Made by a program: the position numbers and the translations under genes. Under the pieces are notes generated by a model, which had not been told where the DNA came from, searched no databases, and saw only the letters and a list, made by a program, of their open reading frames with translations. A stretch of 64,000 nt of DNA from a bacterium. Lineage in GTDB: Bacteria > 4484-113 > JAFGCY01. This document shows positions 6,506 to 48,112 of the stretch, in pieces; the first letter of the stretch is position 1; each line of letters starts with the position of its first letter. Location of the stretch: the NCBI GenBank assembly GCA_020849855.1, contig JADZFO010000027.1, positions 2,585-66,584 on the forward strand, in the 5' to 3' direction.

Positions 6506-8134
6506 TCAGGCCTGCCAGTCCCAGGCCTCGACAAACTGCCGCAGGAAGTAGTCCGGGTTCAGCTTCTCACCGCTCAGGTGCTCCAGGGCCTCGTTCCAGG
6601 GCCGCAGCGCCCCTTGCTCAAAAAGGCCTTCGCGCAGCCAGGCGCCTGTGCCGGGCTGGCGGATCAGTGCAGCGCTGCCGAGCTTGTTCTCAATGTAGTG
6701 CTGCATCTGGCTGGCGGTCAGCTCGCCCAGAATGTAGTTGTGGTAATAGACCGGCGACTGGGCGATGTGCGACTTGGTGGCCCAGTCCGGCATGTCGCGG
6801 CCTTCCGGCCGCTGCACAAGCTGGTAACGCTCGACCAGATCCCACCACAGGCGGTTCAGGTCCTGGCCCGGGTCGGCGTAGAGCGCGCGCTCAAAGCTGG
6901 TCATGACCATCATCCAGCGGGTAAAGACCAGCATCTGGAAGGCCAGCTGCTTGCCCGCGGCGCTGGACAGCTCCTGCGCTGTCGCTGCATCCAGGCCCAG
7001 TATGTCAGTCAGCCAGGCCGCGTCGTAGGTCAGGCGGCCAAAGAGCATCGCGATGGCTTCCGTGCTGCAGATATGCGCGATGGAGCGCAGGAAGTAGGGC
7101 TGCCGGGGCAGAAGGTACTGGTCATAGGCCGCATGGCCGAACTCGTGCAACATGGTGCTGGCCCAGTCTGCATTGTCGCGGCAGTTGCACAGCACATGCA
7201 CCTGCTGCGGGTCGCGGCCGATGACGAGGCAGAAGGCGCCCTGGTCCTTGCCGTCGCGCTCATACAGATCGCTGTTGGCGAGGCTTATGTCGATGTTCAG
7301 GCCCACGCGCTCGAAGGTCAGCGCAGTCAGCCGTTCCAGGTTCTGGTCCTTGAAGTAGCTGTCCAGGTCCAGGTCCTGAAGCTGGGGCGCCTCCTGGAAG
7401 AAAGGGTCTTCATAGTGCCAGGGGCGCAGATCCGCCGGGCCGCTAAGGCCAAAGCGCCGGCACAGGCGCTGGTCCAGCCTGGCCTTGGCTGCGGCAAAGG
7501 GCGCGCGGGTGGCCTCTTCCAGCCTGTCCAGCAGGCGGTAGAGCTCTGCCTCGTCGATCTCCTGGGTCTGCATCTGGCGGTCGTAGTAGTCGCGGAAGCC
7601 GTGCTCCCGCGCGCCGGCGTTGCGCAGGGCCACCAGTTCCAGCAGTAGGGGCTGCACCTCGGGACCGATCTGCTTGCTGGCTTCCCAGTAGGACTGCCGC
7701 TGCCCGGAGTCATCGCAGTCCCGCAGGCAGTCGCGGATGTCGTTGGAGCTCACCTTGTGCCCCTCGACCTCGCCGCGGAAGTTTGTATATAGGGCGCCGA
7801 TCTCTGCTTCCAGCTCGTTGCTGCGTTTGGCCGCGGCCTCGCTCTCCTGGTTGCGGATGAACTCATTGCGCAGGAGCTGGGCGGTGCGGGCCAGCTCGCC
7901 GTCCAGCCCGGCGGATTCAGCCTCTTCAATGAGCAACTTGAACTGCTGGAAGCGCTCCGGGCTGCCGAAGACCGCGTGGTACTGCATGCCAAGCTCCACC
8001 ATGCGGGGCAGCAGGGACTCATCGCCAGTATTGGCGAAGCGCCACTCGGTATCGCTGAGCCCGATCTCCAGCAGCTCGGTTTCCTGCGCCAGCTGATCCA
8101 CAAAGTCCAGCAGCTGCTTCATATAGCTCCTCAC
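6506..8134 (-). CDS. M3-family oligoendopeptidase (PepF-like zinc metallopeptidase).
   Basis: 542 aa with an HEFGHA zinc-binding motif plus a downstream Glu. Length and overall layout match M3B oligoendopeptidases. Confidence 0.75.
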   Translation of the reverse strand: MRSYMKQLLDFVDQLAQETELLEIGLSDTEWRFANTGDESLLPRMVELGMQYHAVFGSPERFQQFKLLIEEAESAGLDGELARTAQLLRNEFIRNQESEAAAKRSNELEAEIGALYTNFRGEVEGHKVSSNDIRDCLRDCDDSGQRQSYWEASKQIGPEVQPLLLELVALRNAGAREHGFRDYYDRQMQTQEIDEAELYRLLDRLEEATRAPFAAAKARLDQRLCRRFGLSGPADLRPWHYEDPFFQEAPQLQDLDLDSYFKDQNLERLTALTFERVGLNIDISLANSDLYERDGKDQGAFCLVIGRDPQQVHVLCNCRDNADWASTMLHEFGHAAYDQYLLPRQPYFLRSIAHICSTEAIAMLFGRLTYDAAWLTDILGLDAATAQELSSAAGKQLAFQMLVFTRWMMVMTSFERALYADPGQDLNRLWWDLVERYQLVQRPEGRDMPDWATKSHIAQSPVYYHNYILGELTASQMQHYIENKLGSAALIRQPGTGAWLREGLFEQGALRPWNEALEHLSGEKLNPDYFLRQFVEAWDWQA

Positions 8135-8159
8135 ATTTCATGCCGTTATCAGGGGCCGG

Positions 8160-9614
8160 CTAGCCGTCGGTCATCAGGCCCTCGGCCTTCAGCCAGAGGC
8201 CGTAGGCCTGGCCAAGCATCACATTCTCGCTGTTTGGTGATGTCAGCAGCTGGCGCCTCACATCAGAGTCCAGCACCGGTGCCTTTCCGCCCCAGTCCAG
8301 GACCAGATAATAAGAGAGGCTGCGGTTCCCCAGCCGCGACAGCATGGCCAGCTCTTCATCCCCGGCCAGATCCCGGCCAAAGCGCGAGACAGTGCTCAGC
8401 ACCGCCCCGGCTGCAGCCTCCGGCAGGAAGGGCGCCTGCTGCAGGGCATAGGCAACGGCGGCCTTGTCGCGGCGCATACAGGCCAGCGACAGCTCCAGGC
8501 CCATTTCGGCAATGACGCCCTGCGACAGCTCCTGCAGCTCCTGGATACGTTTCAATGCCGCGCTCTTGGCATCCTCGTCGCCGCTCTCTCCCTTGTCGTC
8601 CTCCGCCTTGGCCTTCTTATGGCTGGCGTCAATTTCGCTCTGGTACTGCTTGAGCGTCTCGATCTGCTTCAGCGGGAAGCGCTCAATCTGCTTGTCGGCA
8701 TACAGCAGGGCCAGCTCCGCTGCGCCGGCGCTGCCGGCATCCGCCTTGCGCAGCTTGCCGGGATAGCTCAGGCCAGGCGGGGCAATCTGCGCCGCCGCCG
8801 TAAGCAGCAGGCTGCGCTGAACATCTGGCAGGTCAGTGCGGCTGAGGATACTGTTCCAGGTCTCGATCGGCGCGTGCCTCAGCAGGCCAGCCCACTGCGA
8901 AGGCGCGGTATTGATGAGCGCCGGCTGGCTGAGATAGGCCTCAAAGTCGATACTGCGGCCACCATCGGTTCCCAGCAGCGAATCGATGGCAAAACGGCGC
9001 AGCACATCGCTGGGCTGGGCCGCGCTGTAATGCTGCTCCAGTAGCGCTGCCAGTTCAGGGCTGCGCTGCAGCGGCCCGCCGGGCTCATAGTCCAGCCGGG
9101 CCATGCCCATGCAGAAGTTGGTCACATCTTTTTCTTCATTCAGTTTCAGAGCGCCAAACCAGAAGTCCGCTGGGAACTCGCTGGCGTTTTCGAAGCCATA
9201 CACGGCCCCGAACCAGCGCGCCTGGGCCTGCGGCCCGGCATAGCGGTCCTGCCAGGCCAGGCTGGCCTTGCCGTCTCCACTCAGGCTGTCCAGCACCACG
9301 GCCGCCAGGTGGTCATCCACGGCCTGCGGTTCCAGCAGACTGCGGAACTCCTGCAACTTGAAGCGCAAGATGAACAGCAGCGCGAACTGGCGCTCGTCCT
9401 CATTGCTGCCGCTCAGCGCATCCTTGATCAGCTCGCGCTTGGCCAGGGGCTGCTCGCCGGCCGGATCAGCTTCGCTGCTGGCCTGCCCCGCAGCATCGGT
9501 CGGGGCGCTGCGCGGGTTGCTCTTCCCCGGGCAGGCTGCCAGGCCCAGGAGGGCGATCAGGCTGCAGAGCGCCGGCAGAAGGCCGCGCAAAGCGTGCTTA
9601 AGGCTCAAAGTCAT
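8160..9614 (-). CDS. Hypothetical lipoprotein / secreted protein.
   Basis: The internal M of MTLSLKHALRGLLPALCSLIALLGLAAC gives a signal peptide with a lipobox. The longer ORF-track start at 9746 would overlap deoB. A charged Lys/Glu-rich segment sits near the middle. Confidence 0.45.
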   Translation of the reverse strand: MTLSLKHALRGLLPALCSLIALLGLAACPGKSNPRSAPTDAAGQASSEADPAGEQPLAKRELIKDALSGSNEDERQFALLFILRFKLQEFRSLLEPQAVDDHLAAVVLDSLSGDGKASLAWQDRYAGPQAQARWFGAVYGFENASEFPADFWFGALKLNEEKDVTNFCMGMARLDYEPGGPLQRSPELAALLEQHYSAAQPSDVLRRFAIDSLLGTDGGRSIDFEAYLSQPALINTAPSQWAGLLRHAPIETWNSILSRTDLPDVQRSLLLTAAAQIAPPGLSYPGKLRKADAGSAGAAELALLYADKQIERFPLKQIETLKQYQSEIDASHKKAKAEDDKGESGDEDAKSAALKRIQELQELSQGVIAEMGLELSLACMRRDKAAVAYALQQAPFLPEAAAGAVLSTVSRFGRDLAGDEELAMLSRLGNRSLSYYLVLDWGGKAPVLDSDVRRQLLTSPNSENVMLGQAYGLWLKAEGLMTDG

Positions 9615-14825: not shown

Positions 14826-14900
14826 TTATAACCTAGCCATATGTAAAGTATCGCGGCCTCAGGTTAGTATGGAGTGTTGAGGAATACAGGGCCGACCCGT
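14826..14900. promoter_or_regulatory. AT-rich divergent promoter region between def (-) and the first PaaK-like ligase gene (+).
   Basis: A locally low-GC stretch (tgcaattataacctagccatatgtaaagta) lies between divergently oriented gene starts. No defined -35/-10 boxes were resolved. Confidence 0.3.
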
Positions 14901-16247
14901 ATGCCGCTGCGGGGCTGGCGCTGGACTGCGCTTGGCCTGCTGGGTAAGCACGGTGGGAATGCCGCCCGCCGCCGCCTGGCTGAGCTGGAGCGCAGCCAGT
15001 GGCTCGATCCCGGTGCAATGGAGGAGTACTGCCGGACGCAGGTCGCCCGGCAGCTCAGCTTTGCCGCGCGCTTAGTACCCTTCTATCAGCGGCGCTACGG
15101 GGAAACGGAGAGCCTGAGTGATTACAGGCCGCTGACCAGACTGGATCTGCAATCCGGGTTTCAGGAACTGCAGTCTCCCCTGGCGCAGCAGCGCGGGGCC
15201 TGGAAGCTGAGCAGTTCAGGCTCCAGCGGCCAGGTTGTGACCGTGCTGCGCGACCGCCAGACCCAGGCCTGGGCCACGGCCTGCACCTGGCGCGGGGACT
15301 GTTGGGGGGCGCCGATACTGCCCGAGTCACGGCAGCTCAGCCTGTTGAGCAATGTGGGCAACATCGTGGGCAGCCGCCGGGCTCTCAGCCCCCTGGGCAC
15401 CTGGCTGCACAACCGCTATGTTCTGGATGCCATGCGCCTGACACCGCAGCGGGTGAAGGAGCTGCTGGAACGCATCGCGGAACTGCGGCCGCAGGTGCTT
15501 TCAGGCTATCCCAGCGTGCTGCTGCCAGTTGCGAGGATCGCCAGCAGCCATGGCATGCTGGCGCCTGTTCTGCAGAAAGTGATACCTACGGCCGAAAGCT
15601 GCAGTCCTGAGGAGGCGGCAGAGCTGGAGCAGTTCTTCCGCGTCCCAGTGCGGCAGCGCTATGGTTCGCACGAATTCAGCGCGATGGCCCACCAGTGCGA
15701 AGCCGGCCGCTGGCACTGGCACAGCGAGGTAATCTGGCCTGAGGTTGTGCGACAGGACGGCAGTATTGGCCAAAGTGGTCGCGGAAGCCTGCTTTGCACA
15801 TCCCTGGTGAACCAGTCCATGCCGTTGATCCGCTATGAGATCGGTGATGTGGTGGATCTGGACTCTGCCGCCTGTTCCTGCGGGAGAGGGTTGGGGAGTT
15901 TCAGCAGCATCGAAGGCCGGACCCAGGAGCATGTCTACTGCCCGGACGGAAGCTGGATCAGCAGCCATGCATTCCTGGCACCGCTGCGCAGCCTGCCGCT
16001 GCTGCAGTTCCAGCTGGTGCAGGAAATGCCGGATGAGCTGCTGCTGCGTGTAGTGGCACAGGGACCGCTGGAACCCCGGCAGGCGGAGTGGATTCAGGAG
16101 ACCTACCGCCAGATCCATGGCGGGGCCTTCAGGCTGCGCATTGAACAGACTGATGAGCTGGAGCGCAGTCCAAGCGGCAAGCTGCTGCGCTGCATAAACC
16201 GGCTGAAGCGACCTGAGCTGCCAAGCAGCTCGAATTCCACTACGTGA
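14901..16247 (+). CDS. PaaK/CapK/coenzyme-F390-synthetase-family adenylate-forming enzyme, paralog 1.
   Basis: SSGSSGQVVT P-loop (compare PaaK TSGTTGKP). Also RYGSHEF (YGxTE-like), PLIRYEIGD, CSCGRGL and a C-terminal SGK. The ATG at 14901 gives MPLRGWRW, matching the MDWRW N-termini of the other paralogs. A GTG at 14874 is an alternative start. Confidence 0.75.
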   Translation: MPLRGWRWTALGLLGKHGGNAARRRLAELERSQWLDPGAMEEYCRTQVARQLSFAARLVPFYQRRYGETESLSDYRPLTRLDLQSGFQELQSPLAQQRGAWKLSSSGSSGQVVTVLRDRQTQAWATACTWRGDCWGAPILPESRQLSLLSNVGNIVGSRRALSPLGTWLHNRYVLDAMRLTPQRVKELLERIAELRPQVLSGYPSVLLPVARIASSHGMLAPVLQKVIPTAESCSPEEAAELEQFFRVPVRQRYGSHEFSAMAHQCEAGRWHWHSEVIWPEVVRQDGSIGQSGRGSLLCTSLVNQSMPLIRYEIGDVVDLDSAACSCGRGLGSFSSIEGRTQEHVYCPDGSWISSHAFLAPLRSLPLLQFQLVQEMPDELLLRVVAQGPLEPRQAEWIQETYRQIHGGAFRLRIEQTDELERSPSGKLLRCINRLKRPELPSSSNSTT

Positions 16248-16276: not shown

Positions 16277-17620
16277 ATGACTGCGCTAGTGGGGTTTAGA
16301 ACGGCACTGTGGAAGCTGAAGGCCGGAGTGGATGGCAACCCGGTTTTCCAGCGCTATGAACACCTGATGCAGTCCCAGTGGTTCCTGCCTGCGGAGTTGC
16401 AGGCCCGGACCGCTGAGGCGCTTCAGCGTGTGCTTCTGCACAGTGCGCGCTCTGTGCCCTTTTACCGCAGGCGCAACGCAAAGGCAGATTCGCTGGAGAG
16501 CTTCGGCACCATCAGCCGTGATGAGTTGATCAACGGCTTTGGCCAGCTTCAGTCGACAGACCCCGGACCGCTGCCGCACTGGCAGACCAGCTCCAGCGGT
16601 TCCTCCGGCCAGCCAGTTACGGTCGTGCTGGACAAGGAGTGCAACAGCTGGCGCACCGCGAGCGCCTGGCGCGGCGACACCTTCGGTACCGGCCTCGGCC
16701 CGGATGCCAGGCAGCTGGCCATCTGGGGCAACCCGATGGAGCTGAAGCTGACGCGGCGCATGTTCCAGCGCGCGCTGAACTTCTACCACAACCGCTTCAT
16801 CGTCGACGGCTTCACCATAACCCCCGAGAGCGTCCGCGAGATCCACCGCGTGATGTGGAAGCTGCGGCCCAAGATTCTGTATGGCTATCCCGCTTCCCTG
16901 CACGGCTTTGTGCTCAGCGCCCTGGAGCAGGGCCTGGAGCCGATACCGGTCTGGCGCCTGATGACCACCGGCGAGCAGCTAAACGAAACCCAGAAGGAAG
17001 CCATCGCGCAGTACTTCGGGGTGACGGTCTGCGAGCGTTATGGCAGCCGGGAGTTCGGCTCCATGGCGCACCAGTGCGAGCACGGCGTCTGGCATATCCA
17101 CCAGGAGCACCTGCACTTTGAAGTCCGCCTGCCTGACGGCAGGATCAGCGACAGCGGAACCGGCGACCTGCTGGTGACTTCACTGCACAACTTCACCATG
17201 CCCCTGATCCGCTATGAGATCGGCGACATGGCCAACCTGACGCCGGCGGACTGCCAGTGCGGCCGCGGACTGCGCACCTTCCACAGCCTGCTGGGCCGGC
17301 CCAGCGAGTTTATCTACACGCCAAGCGGGGCCTGGATCAACGCCAATCACTATCACGTCCTGCTGCGGGATGAGCCGGTCCGGCATTTCCGCTTCATCCA
17401 GGACACACCCGGTGAGCTGCGCATGCTGATCGTCCCTCTGGCGGAGATGACGCCGGAGCGGCTGGAGCTGCTGCGCAAGCAGGGCGAAGCCATCGCCAGG
17501 CATGAGCTGAAGCTGCATCTGGAAGTTGTTGACCATATCGACCCGCTGCCCAATGGCAAAAGCCCGGGGGTGCTGAACCTGCTGCCCCGGCCGGAGCTGC
17601 CGGGCCGGCTGGATGTCTGA
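16277..17620 (+). CDS. PaaK/CapK-family adenylate-forming enzyme, paralog 2.
   Basis: SSGSSGQPVT, RYGSREFGSMAHQCE, PLIRYEIGD, CQCGRGL and NGKSP motifs. ATG start. Ends 7 bp before the convergent paralog 3. Confidence 0.75.
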   Translation: MTALVGFRTALWKLKAGVDGNPVFQRYEHLMQSQWFLPAELQARTAEALQRVLLHSARSVPFYRRRNAKADSLESFGTISRDELINGFGQLQSTDPGPLPHWQTSSSGSSGQPVTVVLDKECNSWRTASAWRGDTFGTGLGPDARQLAIWGNPMELKLTRRMFQRALNFYHNRFIVDGFTITPESVREIHRVMWKLRPKILYGYPASLHGFVLSALEQGLEPIPVWRLMTTGEQLNETQKEAIAQYFGVTVCERYGSREFGSMAHQCEHGVWHIHQEHLHFEVRLPDGRISDSGTGDLLVTSLHNFTMPLIRYEIGDMANLTPADCQCGRGLRTFHSLLGRPSEFIYTPSGAWINANHYHVLLRDEPVRHFRFIQDTPGELRMLIVPLAEMTPERLELLRKQGEAIARHELKLHLEVVDHIDPLPNGKSPGVLNLLPRPELPGRLDV

Positions 17621-17627
17621 GTGGCGG

Positions 17628-18938
17628 CTAGGAGCGCAGGGTCAGATTGACCACATGCGGATTCTTGCCGCTGGGCAGGGGCTCAATTCGCTCAACCAGT
17701 TTCAGGTCCACCTTCATGAGCCCGAGCAGCACACCATCAAAGTCCTTGTGCAGCCCGCTGAGCAGCGCCTCATCCTCTGGCGCGAGGCCCTGCAGCAGCA
17801 CCTCAAGGTGGTCCGCGGAGTCCTGGACAATCCTGAAACGCTTCAGGCTCAGGCGACGCAGGAAATTGGTGAAGGCCAGTGAACTGATCAGCCGCCCGTC
17901 GGGGCTGGTGATGTGCTCAGCGACCCGGCCCTCGATGCCGCGGAAGGCCGGCAGACCCCGCCCGCAGTTGCACGGAACCGCTGTTGCATCGACCACATCG
18001 CCTATGTCGTAGCGCAGCAGTGGCATCACACGGTTGCTCAGCGTAGTGCAAACGGCGCGGCCGCAGCCATGGCGGGCGAAGCTGCCATCCGTGAGCTGGA
18101 CCTCGAGCAGGAAGTTCTCACTGTGCCAGTGCCAGTTACCCTGCTCGCACTGATGCGCCATCGAGCCGATCTCCCGGCTGCCATAGCGGCCCAGTACCGG
18201 ACAGCCGAAGTACTCTTCAAAATCGAGGCGCTGCAGTTCGCTGCAGTACTCCGCGGTCGGGATGACTTTACTCACGGCTGGCGCGCGCAGTCCGAGCCGG
18301 CGCGAAATTGACACGAAAGCGCTTAGCGCGGTCACATAACCGTAGATGATCCCCGGGCGCAGCCGCCGGATGCGCTGATGCAGTGCACGGACCTTTGCAT
18401 CGTCAAGGACAAAGCAGTCCAGCAGGAAGCGGTTGCGATAGAGGCTGGATGCGGCTTCAAGCAGCGGGTGCCGGCTTTTAAGGTCCCTGGAGTTGCCCCA
18501 CAGCGCGACCTGCCGCGCCGTCGGCCCTAGCTGGCTGCCCCAGCAGTCTCCCCGCAGGGCGGCTGCATGGCGCCAGGCTGCGCTTGAGCCGTCGTAAACA
18601 ATGCTCACCGGCTCACCGGTTGAACCACTGCTGGTTACGCGGTGCATGGTGCCGCCGGCTTCCAGGTTCATGAGCGAATGCCCAAGGCGCTTGAGGTCAA
18701 CTCGACCTATCAGCGGCAGCTGATCGATTGTAATTACCTCAGAGTCCAGTGGCAGGCTTTGGTAGAAGGGAATGGACTGCCGGGCGTAATCCAGGATCTG
18801 CGCCAGGCGGGAGGCCTGGTAGTTCTCTAGCTGGGCAGGCGTCCACCACTGGGTTTCCAGAAGCAGGTCATATGCAGCAGCCGCCTGGCGTCCTTCATCG
18901 CCGCCAAGCACCTGCCATGCCAGCCAGCGCCAGTCCAC
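17628..18938 (-). CDS. PaaK/CapK-family adenylate-forming enzyme, paralog 3.
   Basis: GTG start giving MDWRWLAWQ. Contains SSGSTGEPVS, RYGSREIGSMAHQCE, PLLRYDIGD, CNCGRGL and SGKNP. Confidence 0.75.
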   Translation of the reverse strand: MDWRWLAWQVLGGDEGRQAAAAYDLLLETQWWTPAQLENYQASRLAQILDYARQSIPFYQSLPLDSEVITIDQLPLIGRVDLKRLGHSLMNLEAGGTMHRVTSSGSTGEPVSIVYDGSSAAWRHAAALRGDCWGSQLGPTARQVALWGNSRDLKSRHPLLEAASSLYRNRFLLDCFVLDDAKVRALHQRIRRLRPGIIYGYVTALSAFVSISRRLGLRAPAVSKVIPTAEYCSELQRLDFEEYFGCPVLGRYGSREIGSMAHQCEQGNWHWHSENFLLEVQLTDGSFARHGCGRAVCTTLSNRVMPLLRYDIGDVVDATAVPCNCGRGLPAFRGIEGRVAEHITSPDGRLISSLAFTNFLRRLSLKRFRIVQDSADHLEVLLQGLAPEDEALLSGLHKDFDGVLLGLMKVDLKLVERIEPLPSGKNPHVVNLTLRS

Positions 18939-18978
18939 ACTTGAATGATAACGCTAGTGTGTCAGTGGATCTTCCTGC

Positions 18979-19005
18979 CACTGCGAGGCATTTTTATTCG
19001 CAGTG
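18979..19005. other. Perfect 8-bp inverted repeat (CACTGCGA ... TCGCAGTG) with a T-rich loop, in the 90-bp spacer between paralogs 4 and 3.
   Basis: Read directly from the sequence (ccactgcgaggcatttttattcgcagtg). No U-tract follows on either strand, so it is not a canonical terminator. Confidence 0.3.
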
Positions 19006-19028
19006 TCAGTCTGAGGCAGAGTGCCGGA

Positions 19029-20309
19029 TTACATAGGGGTTCTTGCCGCTGGCAGGCTGGGTATTTCTGCAACCTGGCGCACGGTGAAGCGGAAGGGCTC
19101 GCCAAGCAGAGTTTCGAAGTGAGCGCGCAGTGAGTCGAGATCGCCCGTTGGCAGGTCCTGATCTGCCTGCAGGAGGAAGCTGATCCTGTGCTGCGCCTCG
19201 ATGACGAAGCGGTATTTGCGTAGCGGCAGATGCTGAAAGTAGCTGTTGAAAGTGCAGAGGTTCACCCAGCGCTGGTCAGGGCAGCGGATATGGTCCGTGA
19301 TTCTTCCTTCAAGGCTGCTGAAAGTCTGCAGGCCACGGCCGCAGGGGCAGGCCAGCGGGCTGAGGTCGGCGAAGTCCCCCAGCTCATAGCGGATCAGCGG
19401 CATGGCGCGGTTGCACAGACTGGTCAAAAGCAGCCTGCCGCGCCCTGCGGTGCTGATGCTGCCATCGTCCAAAAGGACCTCGGCCGCCAGTAGCTCGCTG
19501 TTGAGATGCCAGTTGCGGTATTCGCAGCGGCTGGCGATGGGGCCAAACTCATTGCTGGCGTAGCGGTCCACGGCGAAGCCGCCAAAGAAGGCGCTCATCT
19601 CCAGCGCGTCCTCAGCGCTGCAGTGCTCGCCGCAGGGGATCACCTTTTCAAACTGCCAGGGCTCAATCCCGGCCTCTCGAGCAAAGTGCATGAAGGCCAG
19701 GACAGCGGAGCTGGGGCCATACAGCAGGCGTGCGCCGCAGTCGGCAAAGTCCTGGTTCACTTCACGGGCCCGCGCCGGTGTCATCTCAAAGCAGTTGAAG
19801 ACGAAGCGGTTGAAGAAACGGTCGTAGAGCCTGGCGCGCAGGCTGCGCAGCTTGCCCGAGTCACGGCTGGAAGCCCACAGCCCGGCCTGCGGATCTGTCG
19901 GACGCAGCCTGCTGCCCCAGAGGTCACCGCGCAGCAGGGCCGCCCTGCGGGTGGCCTGGGCCTCGATGTCCACGCTGACAGTCACCGGCTCGCCCGTCGA
20001 ACCGCCGGTTTGCCAGCGGCTGATCCGGCCGGGCGGCGCATGCTCGGGCTGCAGCGCCGCAGCCTGATCGCGCAGGGTCTGGCGCGTGATGACGGGGAAG
20101 CTCTCCAGGCGCGCCGGCAGCCCTGAACCGCGGTAGTAAGGCACGGTCTCCAGGGCGTAGCGCAGGATCAGCTCCAGGCGCTCAGCGCGCAGCGCGGCGA
20201 GCTCAGCCGGGCTGGCCCACTGGCTTTGCAGCAGCGCGTCATAGGCCGCTGCCGTGGGCCGCCAGATTTCGCCGTCATAGAGCTGCCAGCCCAGCCAGCG
20301 CCAGTCCAT
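19029..20309 (-). CDS. PaaK/CapK-family adenylate-forming enzyme, paralog 4.
   Basis: An in-frame ATG gives MDWRWLGWQ; a TTG 18 nt upstream at 20327 is an alternative start. Contains TGGSTGEPVT, RYASNEFGPIASRCE, PLIRYELGD and CPCGRGL. Confidence 0.75.
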   Translation of the reverse strand: MDWRWLGWQLYDGEIWRPTAAAYDALLQSQWASPAELAALRAERLELILRYALETVPYYRGSGLPARLESFPVITRQTLRDQAAALQPEHAPPGRISRWQTGGSTGEPVTVSVDIEAQATRRAALLRGDLWGSRLRPTDPQAGLWASSRDSGKLRSLRARLYDRFFNRFVFNCFEMTPARAREVNQDFADCGARLLYGPSSAVLAFMHFAREAGIEPWQFEKVIPCGEHCSAEDALEMSAFFGGFAVDRYASNEFGPIASRCEYRNWHLNSELLAAEVLLDDGSISTAGRGRLLLTSLCNRAMPLIRYELGDFADLSPLACPCGRGLQTFSSLEGRITDHIRCPDQRWVNLCTFNSYFQHLPLRKYRFVIEAQHRISFLLQADQDLPTGDLDSLRAHFETLLGEPFRFTVRQVAEIPSLPAARTPM

Positions 20310-20354
20310 GACTGCATCATAGCGCAACCATAAGGCGCTGTTGCCTGCCTCCGA

Positions 20355-21683
20355 TCAGTCGCTCTGGGCCGCGTCGCGCTCCTTGCGCAGCAGGTTCACG
20401 ATATGCGGGCTTTTGCCGCTGCGCAGGGGCGGGATGAGTTCAAGCTGCTCAATATCCACCCGGATCTGGCCCTCGAAAAGACGCTCGAAGCCGACCAGCA
20501 CCTGGGCCCGCAGCTCGCTGCTGATCTCGCCGCGGTACTCCACCTGCAGGGTCACATGCTCCAGGGCATCCTGCACGATGCGGAACTTGGCAAAGGGCGT
20601 CAGGCGCAGGAAGCGCGTGAAGGCCATGGAGCTGATCCAGCGGCCGTCGGGGCAGTAGACATGCTCCGCCACGCGGCCCTCGATGCTGCGGAAGGTTGGC
20701 AGGCCGCGGCCACAGGGGCAGGGCGGCCCGTCGAGGTCCAGCAGGTCGCGGATGTCGTAGCGGATGGTGGGCATCAGGCGGTTGCTGAGGCTGGTGCAAA
20801 GCAGGCTGCCCCGGCCGTCCTCGCTGATGCTGCCGTCCGGGTGCTGTACCTCCAGATACAGGTGCTCGCAGCTGATATGCCAGGAGCCCGCCTCGCACTG
20901 GTGGCCCATCGGGCCCATCTCGCGCGAGGCATAGCGCTCCAGAATCACCGCACCTTCGAAGAACTCCCGGATCTCGGCCCTGGCCTCGGGCGTGCACTGC
21001 TCTGCTGTGGGCATGACCTTCTCTATGAAGGGCGGGCGCAGTCCAAGCTCCCTGGCGAAACGAATGTAGCCCAGCAGCGATGAAACATAGCCGTACAAAA
21101 ATCGCGGCCGCCGCTGGTGCAGTTCCCGGTGAATGCGCTGCACCTGCTGGCAGTCCATTACCCAGCAGTGGATGATCCAGCGGTTGTAGAGCCAGTCATA
21201 GGCCCGGCTGCGCAGGCTCTGGCTCTGCCGCGAGTCGCGCGGGTTGCCCCAGAGGCTGACGGTTGGCGCGGTGGGCTCGAAGCTGGCGCCCCAGCTGTCA
21301 CCGCGGTAGAGCGCCGCGCGGCGCCAGGCGAAGGTCAGTTCGTCGAAGTGAATCGTCGCCGGCTCACCGGTGCTGCCGCTGCTGGTGCCCTCAAAGCGCT
21401 TGCCGGGCGGGGCCTCATCCGAGAGCAGTCGGCTCTGCTCACGCATGATGAGCTGGCGGGACAGGACCGGGTAATCCGTGAGCCTTGTGCCAAGGCCCAG
21501 TTCGCGGTAGTAGGGGACAGTGCGGCTGGCATGTTCAAGCACTTCTTCGAGCCGCTCGCGCTGGTAGCGCTGCAGCTCCCGGGTGGGCCACCACTGGCTT
21601 TGCAGGCACCAGTCATAACGCTGAGCGACAGCGCGGCCGAGATCCCCGCCATAAACCTGCCAAGCCAGCCAGCGCCAGTCCAA
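20355..21683 (-). CDS. PaaK/CapK-family adenylate-forming enzyme, paralog 5.
   Basis: The TTG at 21683 gives MDWRWLAWQ. The longer ORF-track start would overlap paralog 6. Contains SSGSTGEPAT, RYASREMGPMGHQCE, CPCGRGL and SGKSP. Confidence 0.7.
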   Translation of the reverse strand: MDWRWLAWQVYGGDLGRAVAQRYDWCLQSQWWPTRELQRYQRERLEEVLEHASRTVPYYRELGLGTRLTDYPVLSRQLIMREQSRLLSDEAPPGKRFEGTSSGSTGEPATIHFDELTFAWRRAALYRGDSWGASFEPTAPTVSLWGNPRDSRQSQSLRSRAYDWLYNRWIIHCWVMDCQQVQRIHRELHQRRPRFLYGYVSSLLGYIRFARELGLRPPFIEKVMPTAEQCTPEARAEIREFFEGAVILERYASREMGPMGHQCEAGSWHISCEHLYLEVQHPDGSISEDGRGSLLCTSLSNRLMPTIRYDIRDLLDLDGPPCPCGRGLPTFRSIEGRVAEHVYCPDGRWISSMAFTRFLRLTPFAKFRIVQDALEHVTLQVEYRGEISSELRAQVLVGFERLFEGQIRVDIEQLELIPPLRSGKSPHIVNLLRKERDAAQSD

Positions 21684-21720
21684 GCCTGCATCATAGCGCG
21701 GCCCGGCTGTCTGCCCGGCA

Positions 21721-23055
21721 CTAAGGCTCCTGCGGAACTGGCAGACCGGCGGCCCGCCGGTGCAGCTTGTTGATGACAATCGGGTCCTTGCCGTTTGAGA
21801 GCGGCAGTATCTTCTCGACCAGCCGGATACGAAGCTGCATCTGCTCGCCAAGGTAGGCATGGAAGAGGCGTTCCACCTCTGCGCGCATCTCTGCCGGTAC
21901 CGGCTCGCTGCCCTGGACCTGCACCTCAATCGTGCGCTCGTCTTCCTGCACCACCCGGTATTTGCTGAAGGCCATCCTCCGCAGCGGCATGATGAAGCCC
22001 CAGGGACTGAGCCAGCCGCCGTCCGGCCGAAACAGCTGCTCCGAGAGCCTGCCGTCCAGCAGGCTCATGGTGGGCAGGCCGCGGCCGCAGGTGCAGGGGA
22101 CAGGGGTCAGGTCCACCATGTCTCCGATCTCGTAGCGGATCAGCGGCATGGCCCGGTTGTCCAGGCTTGTGGCCAGCAGGCTGCCATAGCCGCTGGGGCT
22201 GATGCTGCCGTCAGCCTGGCGGACCTCCAGCAGCAGGTTCTCGCTGTGCAGGTGCCAGGTGCCTTGTTCGCAGCGGTGGGCGATAGGGCCCAGTTCCGCC
22301 GCGCCATAGCGGTCCATGACACTGCAGCCAAAGAAGTCCCGCAGTTCCTGCTGGGCAGGCTCCAGGCAGGTCTCGGAGGTAAGCATCACCTTTTCCATGG
22401 GCGGCGGCTGCAGCCCGGCCGCGCTGGCAAAGCGGGCGTAGGCTTCCACCACCGAGGCATAGCCGACCAGCATCCGCGGCCGCAGGCGGTGCAGGGCGCG
22501 GTTGAGCTTCAGCGCCTGCTCGGCATTCATGTCCACGCGGTTGAAGACATAGCGGTTGTAGACATAGTCATACAGACGGGCGCGCCAATTCTGCTGCGAC
22601 CCTGCGTCCCGGCTGCTGACCCACAGCACGACCTGACGGTCGGTGGCGCGCAGGCTGCAGCCCCAGGCATCGCCGCGCAGCATGGCGGCCCGGCGCCAGG
22701 CCTGGGCCAAGGAATCCACCTGTGCACTGACCGGCTCGCCGGAGGATCCGGCGCTCTGCCAGTTGTAGATCTTGCCTGGCGGGGCTGGCGTGGCCAGGTG
22801 CCGCGGGTAGTCCGGCCGGAAGCTCTGACGGTCGACGACCGGAAAGGCGCTCAGGCGCGCCGGCAAGCCCAGGTCGCGATAGAAGGGCACGCTGTCCAGG
22901 GCACAGGCCAGCAGGCGTTCCAGCTTCTGCTGCTGCAGCTCAGCCAGCTTCTCCGGTGCGGCCCACTGGCTTTCCAGCAGAAAGTCATAGCAGGCAGCGG
23001 TCTGGCGCCATGTCTCGCCGCCATGCACCTGCCATAAGGTCCATCTCCAGTCCAA
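21721..23055 (-). CDS. PaaK/CapK-family adenylate-forming enzyme, paralog 6.
   Basis: The TTG at 23055 gives MDWRWTLWQ. The ORF-track extension to 23199 would overlap the polA-like gene. Contains SAGSSGEPVS, RYGAAELGPIAHRCE, PLIRYEIGD, CTCGRGL and NGKDP. Confidence 0.7.
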   Translation of the reverse strand: MDWRWTLWQVHGGETWRQTAACYDFLLESQWAAPEKLAELQQQKLERLLACALDSVPFYRDLGLPARLSAFPVVDRQSFRPDYPRHLATPAPPGKIYNWQSAGSSGEPVSAQVDSLAQAWRRAAMLRGDAWGCSLRATDRQVVLWVSSRDAGSQQNWRARLYDYVYNRYVFNRVDMNAEQALKLNRALHRLRPRMLVGYASVVEAYARFASAAGLQPPPMEKVMLTSETCLEPAQQELRDFFGCSVMDRYGAAELGPIAHRCEQGTWHLHSENLLLEVRQADGSISPSGYGSLLATSLDNRAMPLIRYEIGDMVDLTPVPCTCGRGLPTMSLLDGRLSEQLFRPDGGWLSPWGFIMPLRRMAFSKYRVVQEDERTIEVQVQGSEPVPAEMRAEVERLFHAYLGEQMQLRIRLVEKILPLSNGKDPIVINKLHRRAAGLPVPQEP

Positions 23056-23100
23056 GGGCAGAGATGATAGGGCCTGCGCCCCATGCGCTATAAACAGGGC

Positions 23101-23988
23101 ATGGCGGACCGTATCCTCCTCATCGACTCCACCGGCCTGATCTTCCGGGCCTACTGGACCATCAAGCCGCTCTCCGCGCCCGACGGCACCCCGGTGCACG
23201 CGGTCTTTGGCATGCTGCGGATCATGATGAAAGTCTTCAAGGACCGCCCGGCAACCGCCAGCGCGATGATCTTCGACGCGGGCATGGACACCTTCCGCCG
23301 CGAGATGTACGCAGACTACAAGGCCAACCGCCCGCCGCCGCCCGACGACCTGCGGCCGCAGTTCGGCCTGTCAATTGAAGCCTGCCGCTGCACCGGCGCG
23401 CCGGTCTTTGCCGAAAAGGGCTTCGAGGCCGATGACATCATCGCCACCCTGCGCGACCGCGCGGTGGAGCGCGGCATGGCGGTGACCATCATCACCGGCG
23501 ACCGCGACATCCTGCAGCTGCTGGCGCCGAATGTGGAAGTGCTGATCATGAAGGGCGCCGGCGAGTTCGACCCTTACACGCCGGAGCGCTTCCTTGAGGA
23601 GTACGGCTTCCCGGTCGACCGCTTTGTTGACTACAAGGCTCTGATGGGCGACACCAGTGACAACATTCCCGGCCTGCCCGGCGTGGGTCCTAAGACGGCG
23701 CAGAAGCTGATCCAGACCTATGGCAAGCTTGAGCACATCTATGCCAACCTGGAGTTCGTCAAGCCGGATAAGCTGCGCGGCCTGCTCAAGGAGAACCAGG
23801 AAAAGGTCTTCATGTACCGCGAGCTCTGTACCCTGCATCACACTGTGCCTGTTGAGTACGACTTCAGCTCACGGGTGATGCCAAACTTCGGCAGCGAAGA
23901 ACTGGCGGCCAAGCTGAGCGGCATGGGCTTTACCCGCATCGGCGAGGATGCGAAGAAGCTGGGGGATCTGCAGGCGGCTTCTTCGTAG
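23101..23988 (+). CDS. Standalone 5'-3' exonuclease (Pol I N-terminal domain / FEN-like).
   Basis: Contains the LLIDSTGLIFRAY and GFEADD motifs, an H3TH motif (GDTSDNIPGLPGVGPKTAQKLI), and no polymerase domain. An alternative ATG lies at 23083. Confidence 0.8.
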   Translation: MADRILLIDSTGLIFRAYWTIKPLSAPDGTPVHAVFGMLRIMMKVFKDRPATASAMIFDAGMDTFRREMYADYKANRPPPPDDLRPQFGLSIEACRCTGAPVFAEKGFEADDIIATLRDRAVERGMAVTIITGDRDILQLLAPNVEVLIMKGAGEFDPYTPERFLEEYGFPVDRFVDYKALMGDTSDNIPGLPGVGPKTAQKLIQTYGKLEHIYANLEFVKPDKLRGLLKENQEKVFMYRELCTLHHTVPVEYDFSSRVMPNFGSEELAAKLSGMGFTRIGEDAKKLGDLQAASS

Positions 23989-45237: not shown

Positions 45238-45774
45238 CTAGTCGCCAAGAAAGATCAGATCCGAGCGGCCGGGCGGCTCGATTCCCTGAGAGCGCAGCAT
45301 GTGCGCCACCCCGCCAAGATGCCAGACGCAGTGCGTAGCCGCATGGGTCAGGGCCAGACCCCGGCTCTTGTGCAGGATACCGGCCGAGCGGGTCTTGAAC
45401 TCCACCATCCGGCTGAAGTCTTCTGGCTGCTGGGAGCTGCAGACTTCGCGGTGCCTGTCGATACAGGCCTTGGCGTGCGCAATGAGGACATGCCAGTCGT
45501 CCGTCGCAACAGTGCTGTCGTCCAGCGGGTCGCTGCCCGCGATTTGGTCGCTGTAGCGGTGCAGCGGTGTAAACGCGTGGCGCATGAAGTGGCCCATGGT
45601 GGGAAAGGCAGGGTTGCCGCTTGGGAGACCGAGCCAGCTGTTGTCACGCTCCCTGGCCCACAGCTCCCAGCGCCCAAGCTGGTAATCCAGCCAGGCGTTC
45701 AGCGCGGAAAGGTGGTCACCGCTGCTAAAGAAGCGGCTCGGGCTGCCTGCGCCAGCATTCGGACTGTCACTCAT
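45238..45774 (-). CDS. DinB/YfiT-like (DinB_2 superfamily) protein.
   Basis: His-rich motifs (HFMRHAFTPLHRY ... HCVWHLGGVAHMLR) are typical of the DinB metal-binding four-helix bundle. The start is placed at MSDSP, since the longer ORF overlaps the upstream gene. Confidence 0.45.
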   Translation of the reverse strand: MSDSPNAGAGSPSRFFSSGDHLSALNAWLDYQLGRWELWARERDNSWLGLPSGNPAFPTMGHFMRHAFTPLHRYSDQIAGSDPLDDSTVATDDWHVLIAHAKACIDRHREVCSSQQPEDFSRMVEFKTRSAGILHKSRGLALTHAATHCVWHLGGVAHMLRSQGIEPPGRSDLIFLGD

Positions 45775-48112
45775 GCTGCGATTGTACCGTTCCCGCTGCG
45801 GGCGCAGTCCTGCGGCCGCTGGTCTCAAAACACGGAATACCTAGGGCACGGCACCAGGCTACAGTCACTGCATTAAACAGGCCGCCTTCACCACGCAGCC
45901 GGCCGCTCATTTCCTGCAGGACCTTGCGGTCAGCCACCTTCATCTGCGAACGGTAGCGCCGCCGCATCTGTGCCACCGTTGGCAGGTGGAACAACACCCA
46001 CAGGTGGGCGAGCATCAGACCCGGCCACTCCAGTGGCTGGCGCAACAGGGTCCAGAAGTAGCCCAGCATATGCTGCAGAAGCACGATCGGCCACAGGCGC
46101 AGCAGCACGCTGGCCGGCTGCCAGATCAGCATCCGCATCAGGCGGTTGCGTTCCTGGTAGAAACGCAGGCGCACCTTGCCCAGGCTGCGCGAGGTGGCGT
46201 TATGCAGGTGCACCGCGGCCGCCCGAGGTTCCTTGACGATGCTGCGGCCGGTCGCCCGCAGATGGTTGCCCAGGAAATTGTCTTCGTGATAAGCAAAGAA
46301 GAGGGTGGGGAAGAGCTCCGGCGCCAGGTCATCCACCACCTCCCGCGTGATCAGGCACAGGCCGCCGCTGGGGTAGAAGGCCGGCTTCAGGCTGGCCGTT
46401 CCCGGGCCAAGCTGGGCCGGATCGGTTGGCGGATAGAGGTCGCCGGCGCGGTAGCCGAAGAGGGTGGTTCCGTGGTTGCGGTAGGACTCCTGGATAGCCT
46501 GGGCCAGGCGGGCCGGCATGTCCCAGACCACGTCCTCGGGGTCTTCCTCCAATTCCAGGCGCAGGGCCCGGACGGCCGGAGCGATCAGCTCTACATCGCC
46601 AATGTTGACCAGACGGCCGCTGATGGCGTCGGCACCGCTGCTGCGAGCGGCATACACAAGGCGCTTGATGCAGTCCTGGTCCAGCACGCAGTCGTTATTC
46701 ACCAGAACGATGTACTCGCCCTGGGTCTGGGGCAGCCCCCAGTTCACCCCGCCGGCAAAGCCCTGGTTGCGCGGCAGGCGCAGAACCCTGACTCTGCGCC
46801 GGCCGATCTGGGCTGTTTCGCCGGGGCGGATTCCCAGATCCATGCGCAGCACTTCTGCCTCGTCGGCGTCGCTGCCGTTGTCCACGACGACGATCTCAAT
46901 GTCTTCGTAGCTCTGCGCCAGGATCGAATCAAGGCAGCGCCGCGTCATGCTAAGGCCGTTCCAGTTGAGGACGACGATGGACACCAGTCCGCCGTCGCCC
47001 GCTGCCCCGCCAGGCTCAGCGCTGCCAGGGCTGCCATCCGGCCTGCGGGCCTCCGGGGGCGGGCGCAAACCATATGGCCTGAACTGCGCTTCAACCCTGG
47101 CCGGCGCAACACTGCGATGCGGCCCGGCTGTGAAGCGCGCCGCCAAGGCGCCCGGCAGGTGCCATAGATACAGCACTGCCGCGGGCCAGAGATAAGGTGT
47201 GGCCAGCACCCGCAGCGCGTGCAGGCATTCATAGGCAAACAGCGGCAGCGCGGCGCGCAGCTGGCCAGCAAGCGTATCGTTTTTGGCCAGCATCAGATAG
47301 CGGTTCTTCTCCGCCAGCATGCGGATCTTCCAGCGCTTGCGGCCGCCGCTGCCATGGACTTTGTGCCAGGCGATGCAGCCCGGCTCGTAGTAGGCGAGCC
47401 AGCCGCAGAGCTGCGCGCGCCAGTCGAGGTCCACATCCTCAAAGTAGGCAAAGAAGCTCTCATCGAAGACCTCAGCGCGCTGTGTGGCCAGGCCGCTGTC
47501 CACCGTGCGCTGGGCCAGCTGATCCAGCATTTCGCGTCGGTAGGCGATGGCCGCTGCGTTGCCGCCGAAGACAAAACCGCCCTGGTCGTACTGCCCCTGG
47601 TCCAGTTCGCCCCGGCCGCGGTTCACCGCCGTGCGGCCGGTGTACATGATGTGGCCGGTGCTTTCCAGAATGCCGCTCTCGTCATCCACAAACTGCTTGC
47701 AGACTACGCTGCCGATGCGCGGGTTTGCGGCCAGCACCTTGAGCGCATTGCGGGTGAAGTCGGGATGCAGACGGGCGTCACAGTTCAGCAGGATGATCAC
47801 ATCGCCGCTGGCGGCAGCGATGCCCTGGTTATTGGCTGCGGCGAAACCAATGTTCTGCCGGTTGTTGATGTAGACATCCGGCTTGACCGGCAGCGCTGTG
47901 GGCCTGAAACCCTGGCCGTCAGGGCCGGGGCTGGCGTTGTTGATCAGGATGATCTCATTCTGCTTGTGGGTCTGATCCAGAATGCTTCTGAGCGCCTCGC
48001 TCAGAAAGGCTTCGGTGTTCCAGTTGACCAGAATGTAGCTGACCAGATTCAGCCCAGCGCCGGGCCGCGTGCCTGCCTGCGGCTTCTGTCCTGCGCCTGG
48101 CTGGTCCATCAA
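45767..48112 (-). CDS. Bifunctional-looking glycosyltransferase with two tandem GT2 domains.
   Basis: Two separate GT-A signatures: VSYILVNWNT...DQTH / IILINNAS and VSIVVLNWNGLSMTRRCLDSILAQSYEDIEIVVVDNGSDADEA. Each is followed by DxD-type segments. Confidence 0.7.
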   Translation of the reverse strand: MMDQPGAGQKPQAGTRPGAGLNLVSYILVNWNTEAFLSEALRSILDQTHKQNEIILINNASPGPDGQGFRPTALPVKPDVYINNRQNIGFAAANNQGIAAASGDVIILLNCDARLHPDFTRNALKVLAANPRIGSVVCKQFVDDESGILESTGHIMYTGRTAVNRGRGELDQGQYDQGGFVFGGNAAAIAYRREMLDQLAQRTVDSGLATQRAEVFDESFFAYFEDVDLDWRAQLCGWLAYYEPGCIAWHKVHGSGGRKRWKIRMLAEKNRYLMLAKNDTLAGQLRAALPLFAYECLHALRVLATPYLWPAAVLYLWHLPGALAARFTAGPHRSVAPARVEAQFRPYGLRPPPEARRPDGSPGSAEPGGAAGDGGLVSIVVLNWNGLSMTRRCLDSILAQSYEDIEIVVVDNGSDADEAEVLRMDLGIRPGETAQIGRRRVRVLRLPRNQGFAGGVNWGLPQTQGEYIVLVNNDCVLDQDCIKRLVYAARSSGADAISGRLVNIGDVELIAPAVRALRLELEEDPEDVVWDMPARLAQAIQESYRNHGTTLFGYRAGDLYPPTDPAQLGPGTASLKPAFYPSGGLCLITREVVDDLAPELFPTLFFAYHEDNFLGNHLRATGRSIVKEPRAAAVHLHNATSRSLGKVRLRFYQERNRLMRMLIWQPASVLLRLWPIVLLQHMLGYFWTLLRQPLEWPGLMLAHLWVLFHLPTVAQMRRRYRSQMKVADRKVLQEMSGRLRGEGGLFNAVTVAWCRALGIPCFETSGRRTAPAAGTVQSQHE

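Follow-up and report, generated by a model that had tools for sequence, protein, structure and literature searches.

A stretch of 64,000 nucleotides (nt) from a bacterial metagenome-assembled genome (contig JADZFO010000027.1, positions 2,585 to 66,584 of the forward strand, assembly GCA_020849855.1; hereafter the window) contains an array of six genes for putative PaaK/CapK-like ligases, P1 to P6. We examined the family, the cysteine/histidine cluster, the N-termini and the start codons of these paralogs. An initial annotation, made from the sequence, had listed their open reading frames (ORFs) and start codons: GTG at 18938, TTG at 21683 and 23055, and, for P4, an ATG lying 18 nt inside a TTG. 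All of these were confirmed in the ORF list. The genes are as follows.

14901-16247, + strand: P1, PaaK/CapK-like ligase; ATG start, N-terminus MPLRGWRW, with an alternative leaderless TTG at 14877
16277-17620, + strand: P2, PaaK/CapK-like ligase; ATG start 29 nt past the P1 stop, -10 box absent
17628-18938, - strand: P3, PaaK/CapK-like ligase; GTG start
19029-20309, - strand: P4, PaaK/CapK-like ligase; ATG start, 18 nt inside the TTG at 20327; 3' end frameshifted as assembled
20355-21683, - strand: P5, PaaK/CapK-like ligase; TTG start
21721-23055, - strand: P6, PaaK/CapK-like ligase; TTG start

The six paralogs share pairwise identities of 33-47%. The same six genes, with the same glyA-to-ruvB surroundings, occur on contig CAZEJB010000004.1 of an 'uncultured Planctomycetales bacterium' (hereafter the relative). 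The two sets correspond 1:1 as orthologs, at 63-83% identity as opposed to 33-48% between paralogs; the orthologs of P1, P2, P5 and P6 (R1, R2, R5 and R6) are 63%, 83%, 81% and 75% identical to their counterparts in the window, respectively. The paralogs are anciently duplicated, and the array has been anciently retained in synteny. Six-gene ligase arrays are unusual: when the window was compared with 86 loci (some redundant), 68 of these 87 sequences had a single copy of the gene, and no more than three copies were found outside this lineage.

To place the proteins, a profile built from the six paralogs was searched against the sequences of the PDB. The matches were AjiA1 (6WUQ) and NatL2 (6SIW), each with an E-value of ~1e-33, ClxA (9S3L; 1.6e-25), BT_0428 (4R1L; 8e-20) and PaaK1/2 (~2e-18). 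An AlphaFold2 model of P3, made from a 106-sequence alignment, had a predicted local distance difference test score (pLDDT) of 93.5 and a predicted template modelling score of 0.89. When this model was searched with Foldseek, AjiA1, BT_0428, NatL2 and PaaK1 ranked at the top (E ~1e-25, 405-440 aligned columns, template modelling scores of 0.6-0.7), placing P3 in the two-domain PaaK-type fold of the PaaK-like branch of the ANL superfamily. All six paralogs carry the ANL motifs A3 ([ST][SG]G[ST][ST]GxP), A5 (YGxxE), A7 (RYxxGD; RYDIRD in P5) and A8 (GRxx[DE]). The A10 lysine, part of an SGK near the C-terminus, is found in every paralog but P4 and in the full set of orthologs; the assembled P4 has AAR instead before it terminates. 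P1-P6 are thus predicted to be adenylate-forming ligases of the ANL superfamily, within its PaaK-like/CapK-like branch. Each would activate a carboxylate as the acyl-AMP and pass it to a nucleophile, possibly CoA or an amine or hydroxyl acceptor. Six such ligases, three of them with GTG or TTG starts, are a real but mostly ordinary observation, the proteins being further members of an already-known type.

A Pfam-A scan of the six proteins returned no match, the PF27533 (CapK_C) model being newer than the Pfam copy scanned. In precomputed annotation, the entry for PF27533 is '-' for P3 and P5, and the domain is listed, often as 'weak', for the orthologs and most homologs. The nearest homologs are labelled PF27533 (CapK_C), 'phenylacetate--CoA ligase family protein' or 'capsule biosynthesis protein CapK'. 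In the NCBIfam scan, the only matches lay far below cutoff and were to the DVU_1553, BagE/FevW, FlxY, PaaK and F390-synthetase-related models: the six paralogs scored 21-46 bits against the PaaK equivalog TIGR02155 (cutoff 646), 62-83 bits against NF041217 (BagE/FevW, NatL2-type; cutoff 800) and 73-102 bits against NF045666 (DVU_1553 family AMP-dependent CoA ligase; cutoff 300). With clusters at 50% identity, a profile search for the family as a whole retrieved 30,639 representatives (E <= 1e-3), of which 9,461 remained at a threshold of 1e-30.

The best matches in both sequence and fold are the PaaK-like ligases of benzoxazole biosynthesis: NatL2 (6SIW-6SIZ, 6TM4), AjiA1 (6WUQ) and ClxA (9S3L/9S45). 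The paralogs share with them the ANL adenylation motifs and an identical Cys-x5-His...Cys-x-Cys-Gly pattern. However, overall identity is only ~20-23%, the paralogs have ~20 extra N-terminal residues ahead of the Q-W/D-W motif, and the substrate-contact residues of NatL2 (E235-T239) are not the same in the paralogs. No benzoxazole-pathway neighbours (amidohydrolase or aminohydroxybenzoate genes) were found near the array. Like members of the CapK-like family, the paralogs measure ~430-470 amino acids (aa) and carry the Zn ligands and a common N-terminal motif, but they form a tandem array of six whereas CapK-like genes elsewhere are mostly single copies. A literature search for a biochemically characterized CapK-type ligase found none.

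In the initial annotation, a cluster of the form A-H-(Q/R)-C-E...W-H...C-x-C-G-R-G-L was ascribed to all six proteins, as a subfamily-specific feature that might be a structural or regulatory metal (Zn) site or a redox-sensitive one. Of this pattern, the first Cys, the W-H and the C-x-C-G-R-G-L are indeed invariant in all six paralogs, and the ligands span 62 residues. The residues that flank the first Cys are not universal, as P4 has ASRCE and P5 has GHQCE. The corresponding segments and predicted ligands are listed here.

15696-15881, + strand: Zn-site segment of P1 (C266, H272, C325, C327)
17075-17260, + strand: Zn-site segment of P2 (C267, H273, C326, C328)
17964-18149, - strand: Zn-site segment of P3 (C264, H270, C323, C325); model pLDDT of 95-98 in these 10-residue blocks
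19341-19526, - strand: Zn-site segment of P4 (C262, H268, C321, C323)
20712-20897, - strand: Zn-site segment of P5 (C263, H269, C322, C324)
22087-22272, - strand: Zn-site segment of P6 (C262, H268, C321, C323)

In a hidden Markov model alignment, the C/H/C/C columns of the paralogs coincide, column for column and in high-confidence blocks, with Cys248, His254, Cys308 and Cys310 of NatL2; the NatL2 numbering was checked against the published Ala212-Pro214 and Tyr236. The Zn site of NatL2 was described structurally and biochemically in 2020 (PMC7204872). In the crystal structure, these four residues coordinate a structural Zn2+ in tetrahedral geometry, at a distance of >20 Å from AMP, and the activity of the enzyme was lost with ethylenediaminetetraacetate (EDTA) and regained with Zn2+ (PMC7204872). 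The loss and rescue indicate that the role of the Zn is structural and essential. Homology to this experimentally defined site supports the assignment of the Cys-x5-His...Cys-x-Cys of the paralogs as a putative NatL2-type tetrahedral structural Zn2+ site, in agreement with the structural option of the initial annotation. The predicted site lies in the N-terminal domain, distant from the active site, where it would hold a beta-hairpin/loop region together.

The claim of subfamily specificity did not survive the comparison with the wider family. When the six paralogs were aligned with 120 homologs, 125 of the 126 sequences had C/H/C/C at the four ligand columns, and the pattern recurs in 134 of 139 further cluster representatives. 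The Cys...His...CxC pattern is also carried by the sequences of AjiA1, ClxA and BT_0428. The Zn site thus appears to be a hallmark of the whole CapK-like/PaaK-like branch and not of these six paralogs. The canonical aerobic enzymes PaaK1 and PaaK2 (2Y27, 2Y4O) resemble the paralogs in their two-domain fold, helical N-terminal microdomain and adenylation motifs but differ in this site: in the alignment, they keep the first Cys and lack both the His and the CxC. The cluster was therefore rightly described as lying outside the canonical PaaK motifs. It had also been reasoned that occurrence in ordinary characterized PaaK enzymes would render the cluster uninformative; such occurrence was found for the PaaK-like NatL2, AjiA1, ClxA and BT_0428, but not for canonical PaaK. 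The Cys3His cluster can be annotated as a NatL2-type structural Zn site, which extends a feature held to be unique to NatL2 to a family of ~30,000 cluster representatives at 50% identity. Compared with PaaK and BT_0428, the Zn was considered 'a unique feature of NatL2' by the authors of the NatL2 study (PMC7204872). In BT_0428 (4R1L/4RVN), the aligned residues read Cys...His...CxCGR, and a Zn site may have been overlooked there or is perhaps unoccupied.

The N-termini of P3-P6 had been described as near-identical, of the form M-D-W-R-W-L-(A/G)-W-Q, and as a Trp-rich cap foreign to PaaK. The first of these statements is accurate for P3, P4 and P5, and P6 departs from it.

18912-18938, - strand: N-terminus of P3, (M)DWRWLAWQ; residues 3-11 predicted to be helical
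20283-20309, - strand: N-terminus of P4, MDWRWLGWQ
21657-21683, - strand: N-terminus of P5, (M)DWRWLAWQ
23029-23055, - strand: N-terminus of P6, (M)DWRWTLWQ, which deviates from W-L-(A/G)-W-Q

Independent metagenomic homologs also start with MDWRW (P0002, P0003, P0009 and P0011-14) or MDLRW (P0004). In the 106-sequence alignment, the MDWRW segment is aligned with a family-wide N-terminal motif, [WVF]-R-x-[LV]-[LV]-[YFW]-P-[LA]-Y; Arg4 is matched by Arg in 64 sequences and Trp8 by an aromatic residue in 82. In most of the family, another 3-15 residues precede this motif. The DWRW-type pattern itself is rare, as the 139 further representatives included only P0169 (MNWRA) and, at an internal position, P0124 (GWRWRLWQ). 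Judged by these alignments, MDWRW is a clade-restricted version of the family-wide motif, with Trp at its aromatic positions, and in this clade the protein begins at the motif. The Trp-rich cap is thus real and confined to one clade, as suggested earlier, but it represents one form of an N-terminal helix motif found throughout the family and is no separate invention.

The P3 model has helices at residues 3-11 and 13-29 (pLDDT 92-94). NatL2, AjiA1 and BT_0428 begin only ~10-14 residues ahead of the conserved Q/D-W, so that the first ~20 residues of the paralogs constitute a CapK-family extension. In PaaK, the helical N-terminal microdomain comprises ~70 residues (PMC8388817). MDWRWLAWQ would form the first helix of a ~30-residue N-terminal segment that precedes the conserved Q-W in CapK-like proteins. 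We infer that this extension adds to the PaaK-type helical microdomain; the segment might also be engaged in a membrane or oligomer contact. Gene conversion was considered as the origin of the near-identical 5' ends of P3-P5 and was set aside as unnecessary: Trp has one codon, and GAC, CGC and CTG are expected at 64% GC.

The start codons of P3-P6, and a TTG upstream of P1, are closely preceded by hexamers that resemble the -10 element of a promoter.

18945-18950, - strand: -10-like box TATCAT, 6 nt ahead of the P3 GTG
20316-20321, - strand: -10-like box TATGAT, 6 nt ahead of the P4 ATG
21690-21695, - strand: -10-like box TATGAT, 6 nt ahead of the P5 TTG
23064-23069, - strand: -10-like box TATCAT, 8 nt ahead of the P6 TTG
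14865-14870, + strand: -10-like box TAGTAT, 6 nt ahead of the TTG at 14877, upstream of P1

By inspection, none of the four sequences upstream of P3-P6 contains a Shine-Dalgarno motif of the GGAG/AGGA type. The reading frame of the hexamer relative to the ORF in P6 differs from that in P3-P5, which indicates that the hexamer is conserved as DNA and not as protein. In the relative, boxes lie 6-9 nt upstream of all four orthologs of P3-P6, with different flanking bases; at the homologous start positions, the codons are ATG, GTG, CTG and GTG, respectively. The sequences indicate that the non-ATG starts of P3, P5 and P6 are genuine, as the initial annotation had it. In P3, the GTG is the first possible start codon after an in-frame TAG located six codons before it. 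In P6, Met is absent before the P-loop. Homologs from other metagenomes likewise start at MDWRW. Longer, upstream ATG-initiated proteins, which would have changed the N-terminus, found no support: the upstream in-frame ATG of P5 falls within the coding sequence of P6, and at this place the frame is closed by a stop in the relative. Extending the P5 and P6 ORFs upstream was rejected, as it would run into neighbouring genes and, in the relative, meet stop codons.

The CTG start of R5, the P5 ortholog (position 8648 of the relative's locus, L001), is well supported: an in-frame stop lies 13 codons upstream, with no ATG, GTG or TTG between. Its DWRWTAWQIYGGD codons differ from those of the window by mostly synonymous changes. 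A second CTG was found in a more distant relative (L004, position 8282), where TAGAAT is followed after 6 nt by CTG-GAT-TGG-CGC-TGG; stops lie immediately upstream, again with no ATG, GTG or TTG between. Gene callers shortened both CTG-start proteins, to P0006 (426 aa) and P0010 (373 aa), and likewise P0122, which was made to begin with 'MHGGETW'. Because callers miss TTG and CTG starts directly behind a -10 box, the N-termini of this clade in protein databases are often truncated, and those of the MDWRW clade appear to be systematically wrong.

The arrangement is not restricted to the ligases. We scored a box as TANNNT located 6-8 nt before a start codon, for which the background is 0.7% per position; against this background, a box precedes every one of the four minus-strand ligase starts in both genomes. 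Among the 44 genes of the window, 16 had such a box before an early start. The box was present at 11.3% of early starts versus 0.59% of interior starts (Fisher p = 1.8e-10), and the histogram of box offsets in the window had one sharp peak, at -12. Examples of the arrangement are at window positions 6466, 14816, 24982, 27310, 28692, 37037, 40110, 45774, 48109, 60156, 62675 and 62744. The two genomes have the arrangement in common at glyA, the ABC-2 permease gene, def and the exonuclease gene. By this measure, leaderless expression appears to serve about one in three of the window's genes. As a separate observation, CGC or GCGC precedes many of the start-adjacent boxes of the window, and several of the genes concerned use GTG or TTG.

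P1 has a similar arrangement, with one complication. The TTG at 14877, 6 nt past TAGTAT, lies eight codons ahead of the ATG, and the relative has TAATAT followed after 6 nt by a TTG at the same distance. The eight codons from TTG to ATG are not conserved as protein (RNTGPTR vs PEGTNTL). P1 would have either a leaderless start at the TTG or a 24-nt leader that lacks a Shine-Dalgarno motif. P2 is probably co-transcribed with P1. At the other end of the array, the starts of P6 and of a divergent 5'-3' exonuclease gene are 45 nt apart, with the same layout in the relative, which points to two back-to-back promoters in that space. Within positions 23056-23103 of the window, the start of the exonuclease gene is most likely the ATG at 23101 (MADRILLID) and not 23083, since GCGCTATAAA is located 6 nt upstream of the former.

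The offset of -12 is the one reported for leaderless genes in high-GC bacteria (PMC3160421; PMC12340547), for which AUG and GUG starts are described (PMC4007540). Planctomycete-type genomes are reported to have few Shine-Dalgarno genes, and their upstream signal has been ascribed to 'leaderless mRNA and/or RPS1' (PMC5397173). In the window, a separate -10 box ends 6-8 nt short of the start codon in P3, P4, P5, P6 and probably P1, and transcription would begin at or next to the start codon. We infer, as the best reading, that P3-P6 and probably P1 give rise to leaderless mRNAs. Their own start-adjacent boxes would account for the GTG and TTG starts, which are better explained by a genome-wide leaderless architecture, a feature absent from the initial annotation. 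The locus resembles leaderless expression in Deinococcus-Thermus and Actinobacteria in its TANNNT with the first T ~12 nt before the start, its lack of a Shine-Dalgarno motif and the high share of genes involved (PMC12340547, PMC4007540, PMC3160421). It differs in that the DNA is from a metagenome-assembled genome whose nearest relative is labelled Planctomycetales, and in that the starts include TTG and, in relatives, CTG. These TTG and CTG codons would be the sole unusual element of the starts.

Overall, we consider it likely that P1-P6 are CapK-like ANL ligases in which a NatL2-type structural Zn site and the family N-terminal helix are combined with leaderless starts. Six points weigh against this interpretation or limit it. 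P3-P6 lie 37-90 nt apart on one strand, so that read-through operon transcription is possible. The start-adjacent boxes escaped a sigma-70 consensus scan in which a -35 element is obligatory. Leaderless mRNAs that start with UUG or CUG are considered to be poorly translated in the model organisms studied. The convergence of the four ligands in these paralogs is deduced from homology. BT_0428 has the same four residues despite the 'unique feature' ascribed to NatL2, so that not every carrier need bind Zn. Finally, the housekeeping surroundings of the array (def, ruvB, the 5'-3' exonuclease gene and glyA) are uninformative on substrates. The short gaps, the missing -35 match and the poor efficiency of UUG and CUG would suit an ordinary operon, P6-P5-P4-P3, in which TANNNT is an A/U-rich unstructured landing element for the ribosome (S1) or a relic of duplication, and initiation at GTG and TTG is internal; the RPS1 alternative raised for Planctomycete-type genomes (PMC5397173) is a further argument for it. 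However, the motif is specifically TANNNT with its sharp peak at -12, it is retained in the orthologs though the flanking bases differ, and its change of frame between P6 and P3-P5 means that it was not kept as protein. The box also stands before first and divergent genes with almost no intergenic space (45 nt for the exonuclease gene and P6, 60 nt for def and P1). We therefore regard the ordinary operon as unlikely, if worth keeping in view, and prefer leaderless transcription from the start-adjacent boxes.

The other two components of the interpretation face weaker competition. Cys-rich Zn sites are able to act as redox switches, and the invariance of the motif would fit any essential role, so the Cys3His cluster could in principle be a redox-sensing, Fe-S/regulatory or catalytic-cysteine site rather than a purely structural Zn site. 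The same residues of NatL2 nevertheless bind Zn tetrahedrally at >20 Å from AMP, and Zn2+ alone rescues the enzyme after EDTA. Three Cys and one His at these spacings are a classic structural Zn geometry, and there is no further conserved Cys that could complete a 4Fe-4S site. A redox or regulatory function is thus very unlikely, and the earlier suggestion to that effect drew no support from this analysis; the structural Zn site is preferred. It is even harder to sustain that MDWRW is untranslated, or that the true starts are elsewhere and the N-terminus is an artefact of ORF calling. The callers' shortened orthologs can be cited for this (P0006, beginning MARHIAQRYDW; P0010, 373 aa; P0122, MHGGETW), as can the stop-to-stop ORFs that reach upstream of P5 and P6. 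Yet the segment is conserved in frame between orthologs, with mostly synonymous or conservative changes, and it both aligns with the family-wide motif and is modelled as an ordered helix (pLDDT ~92). P3, the P5 and P6 orthologs of the relative and the L004 gene all have in-frame stops 1-13 codons further upstream, and starting at a downstream Met would delete conserved core elements. An artefactual N-terminus is accordingly extremely improbable, and we retain MDWRW as the likely translated start of these proteins.

The P4 gene as assembled differs from its ortholog near the 3' end.

19051-19055, - strand: site of a 1-nt deletion in P4, CTGCC-AGC vs CTGCCCAGC in the ortholog; one C short in a CCC run

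The shift of frame falls just before the SGK motif with the A10 lysine, and the assembled protein ends in '...LPAARTPM'. The adjacent frame reads SGKNPYVIRHSASD, with a stop at 19006-19008, and matches the SGKSPYVVNRLHS of the ortholog. Either the assembly is wrong at this site or the gene has truly been inactivated by the frameshift. The genes that neighbour the array are ruvB, def, the 5'-3' exonuclease gene, the ABC-2 permease gene, glyA, mfd and the citrate synthase gene. An Rfam scan found three tRNAs in the whole window and no match within the ligase array.

With respect to substrates, the A5-region motifs differ between paralogs: RYGSHE in P1, RYGSRE in P2 and P3, RYASNE in P4, RYASRE in P5 and RYGAAE in P6. 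These pocket motifs are paralog-specific, yet they are conserved between orthologs. The equivalent residues of NatL2 contact the substrate (PMC7204872). The A5 pattern would fit six different specificities. Among the homologs, P0051, P0064, P0065, P0073 and P0108 are fused to GT2 glycosyltransferases, and P0089 and P0103 to aspartate 1-decarboxylases. In L004, a Wzx-type flippase gene (6791-8269) is flanked by MDWRW-clade genes, and in another locus (L006) a clade gene adjoins a hexapeptide acyltransferase gene. These associations give a weak hint that the family may modify glycans or other polymers, perhaps by amide-linking beta-alanine-like amines. A broader scenario, which we consider speculative and quite unlikely as a whole, is that UUG and CUG leaderless starts are routine in this lineage, the start codon serving as an evolvable expression dial for each ligase, and that the six Zn-ligases, with their paralog-specific pockets, act together, possibly as hetero-oligomers formed via the Trp-rich helix, to decorate one envelope glycan or other polymer with several different carboxylates or amines. 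The six-fold array, together with the TTG and CTG leaderless candidates, offers concrete targets for substrate discovery and for the study of non-AUG leaderless initiation.

Two further observations concern related proteins and the rest of the window. Among the 150 best family representatives, 24 are longer than 800 aa (e.g. P0125, P0129, P0131 and P0136). Many of these consist of a tandem fusion of two CapK-like ligases, and two copies of the Zn motif are present in 12; such fusions indicate that paralog pairs exist as one polypeptide in other organisms. In the window, 23 kb from the array, a gene on the - strand (45767-48109) encodes a 780-aa protein with two GT2 domains. No other gene for glycan synthesis was noted among the ORFs of the window that were scanned, and a TATAAT box is located right before its start.

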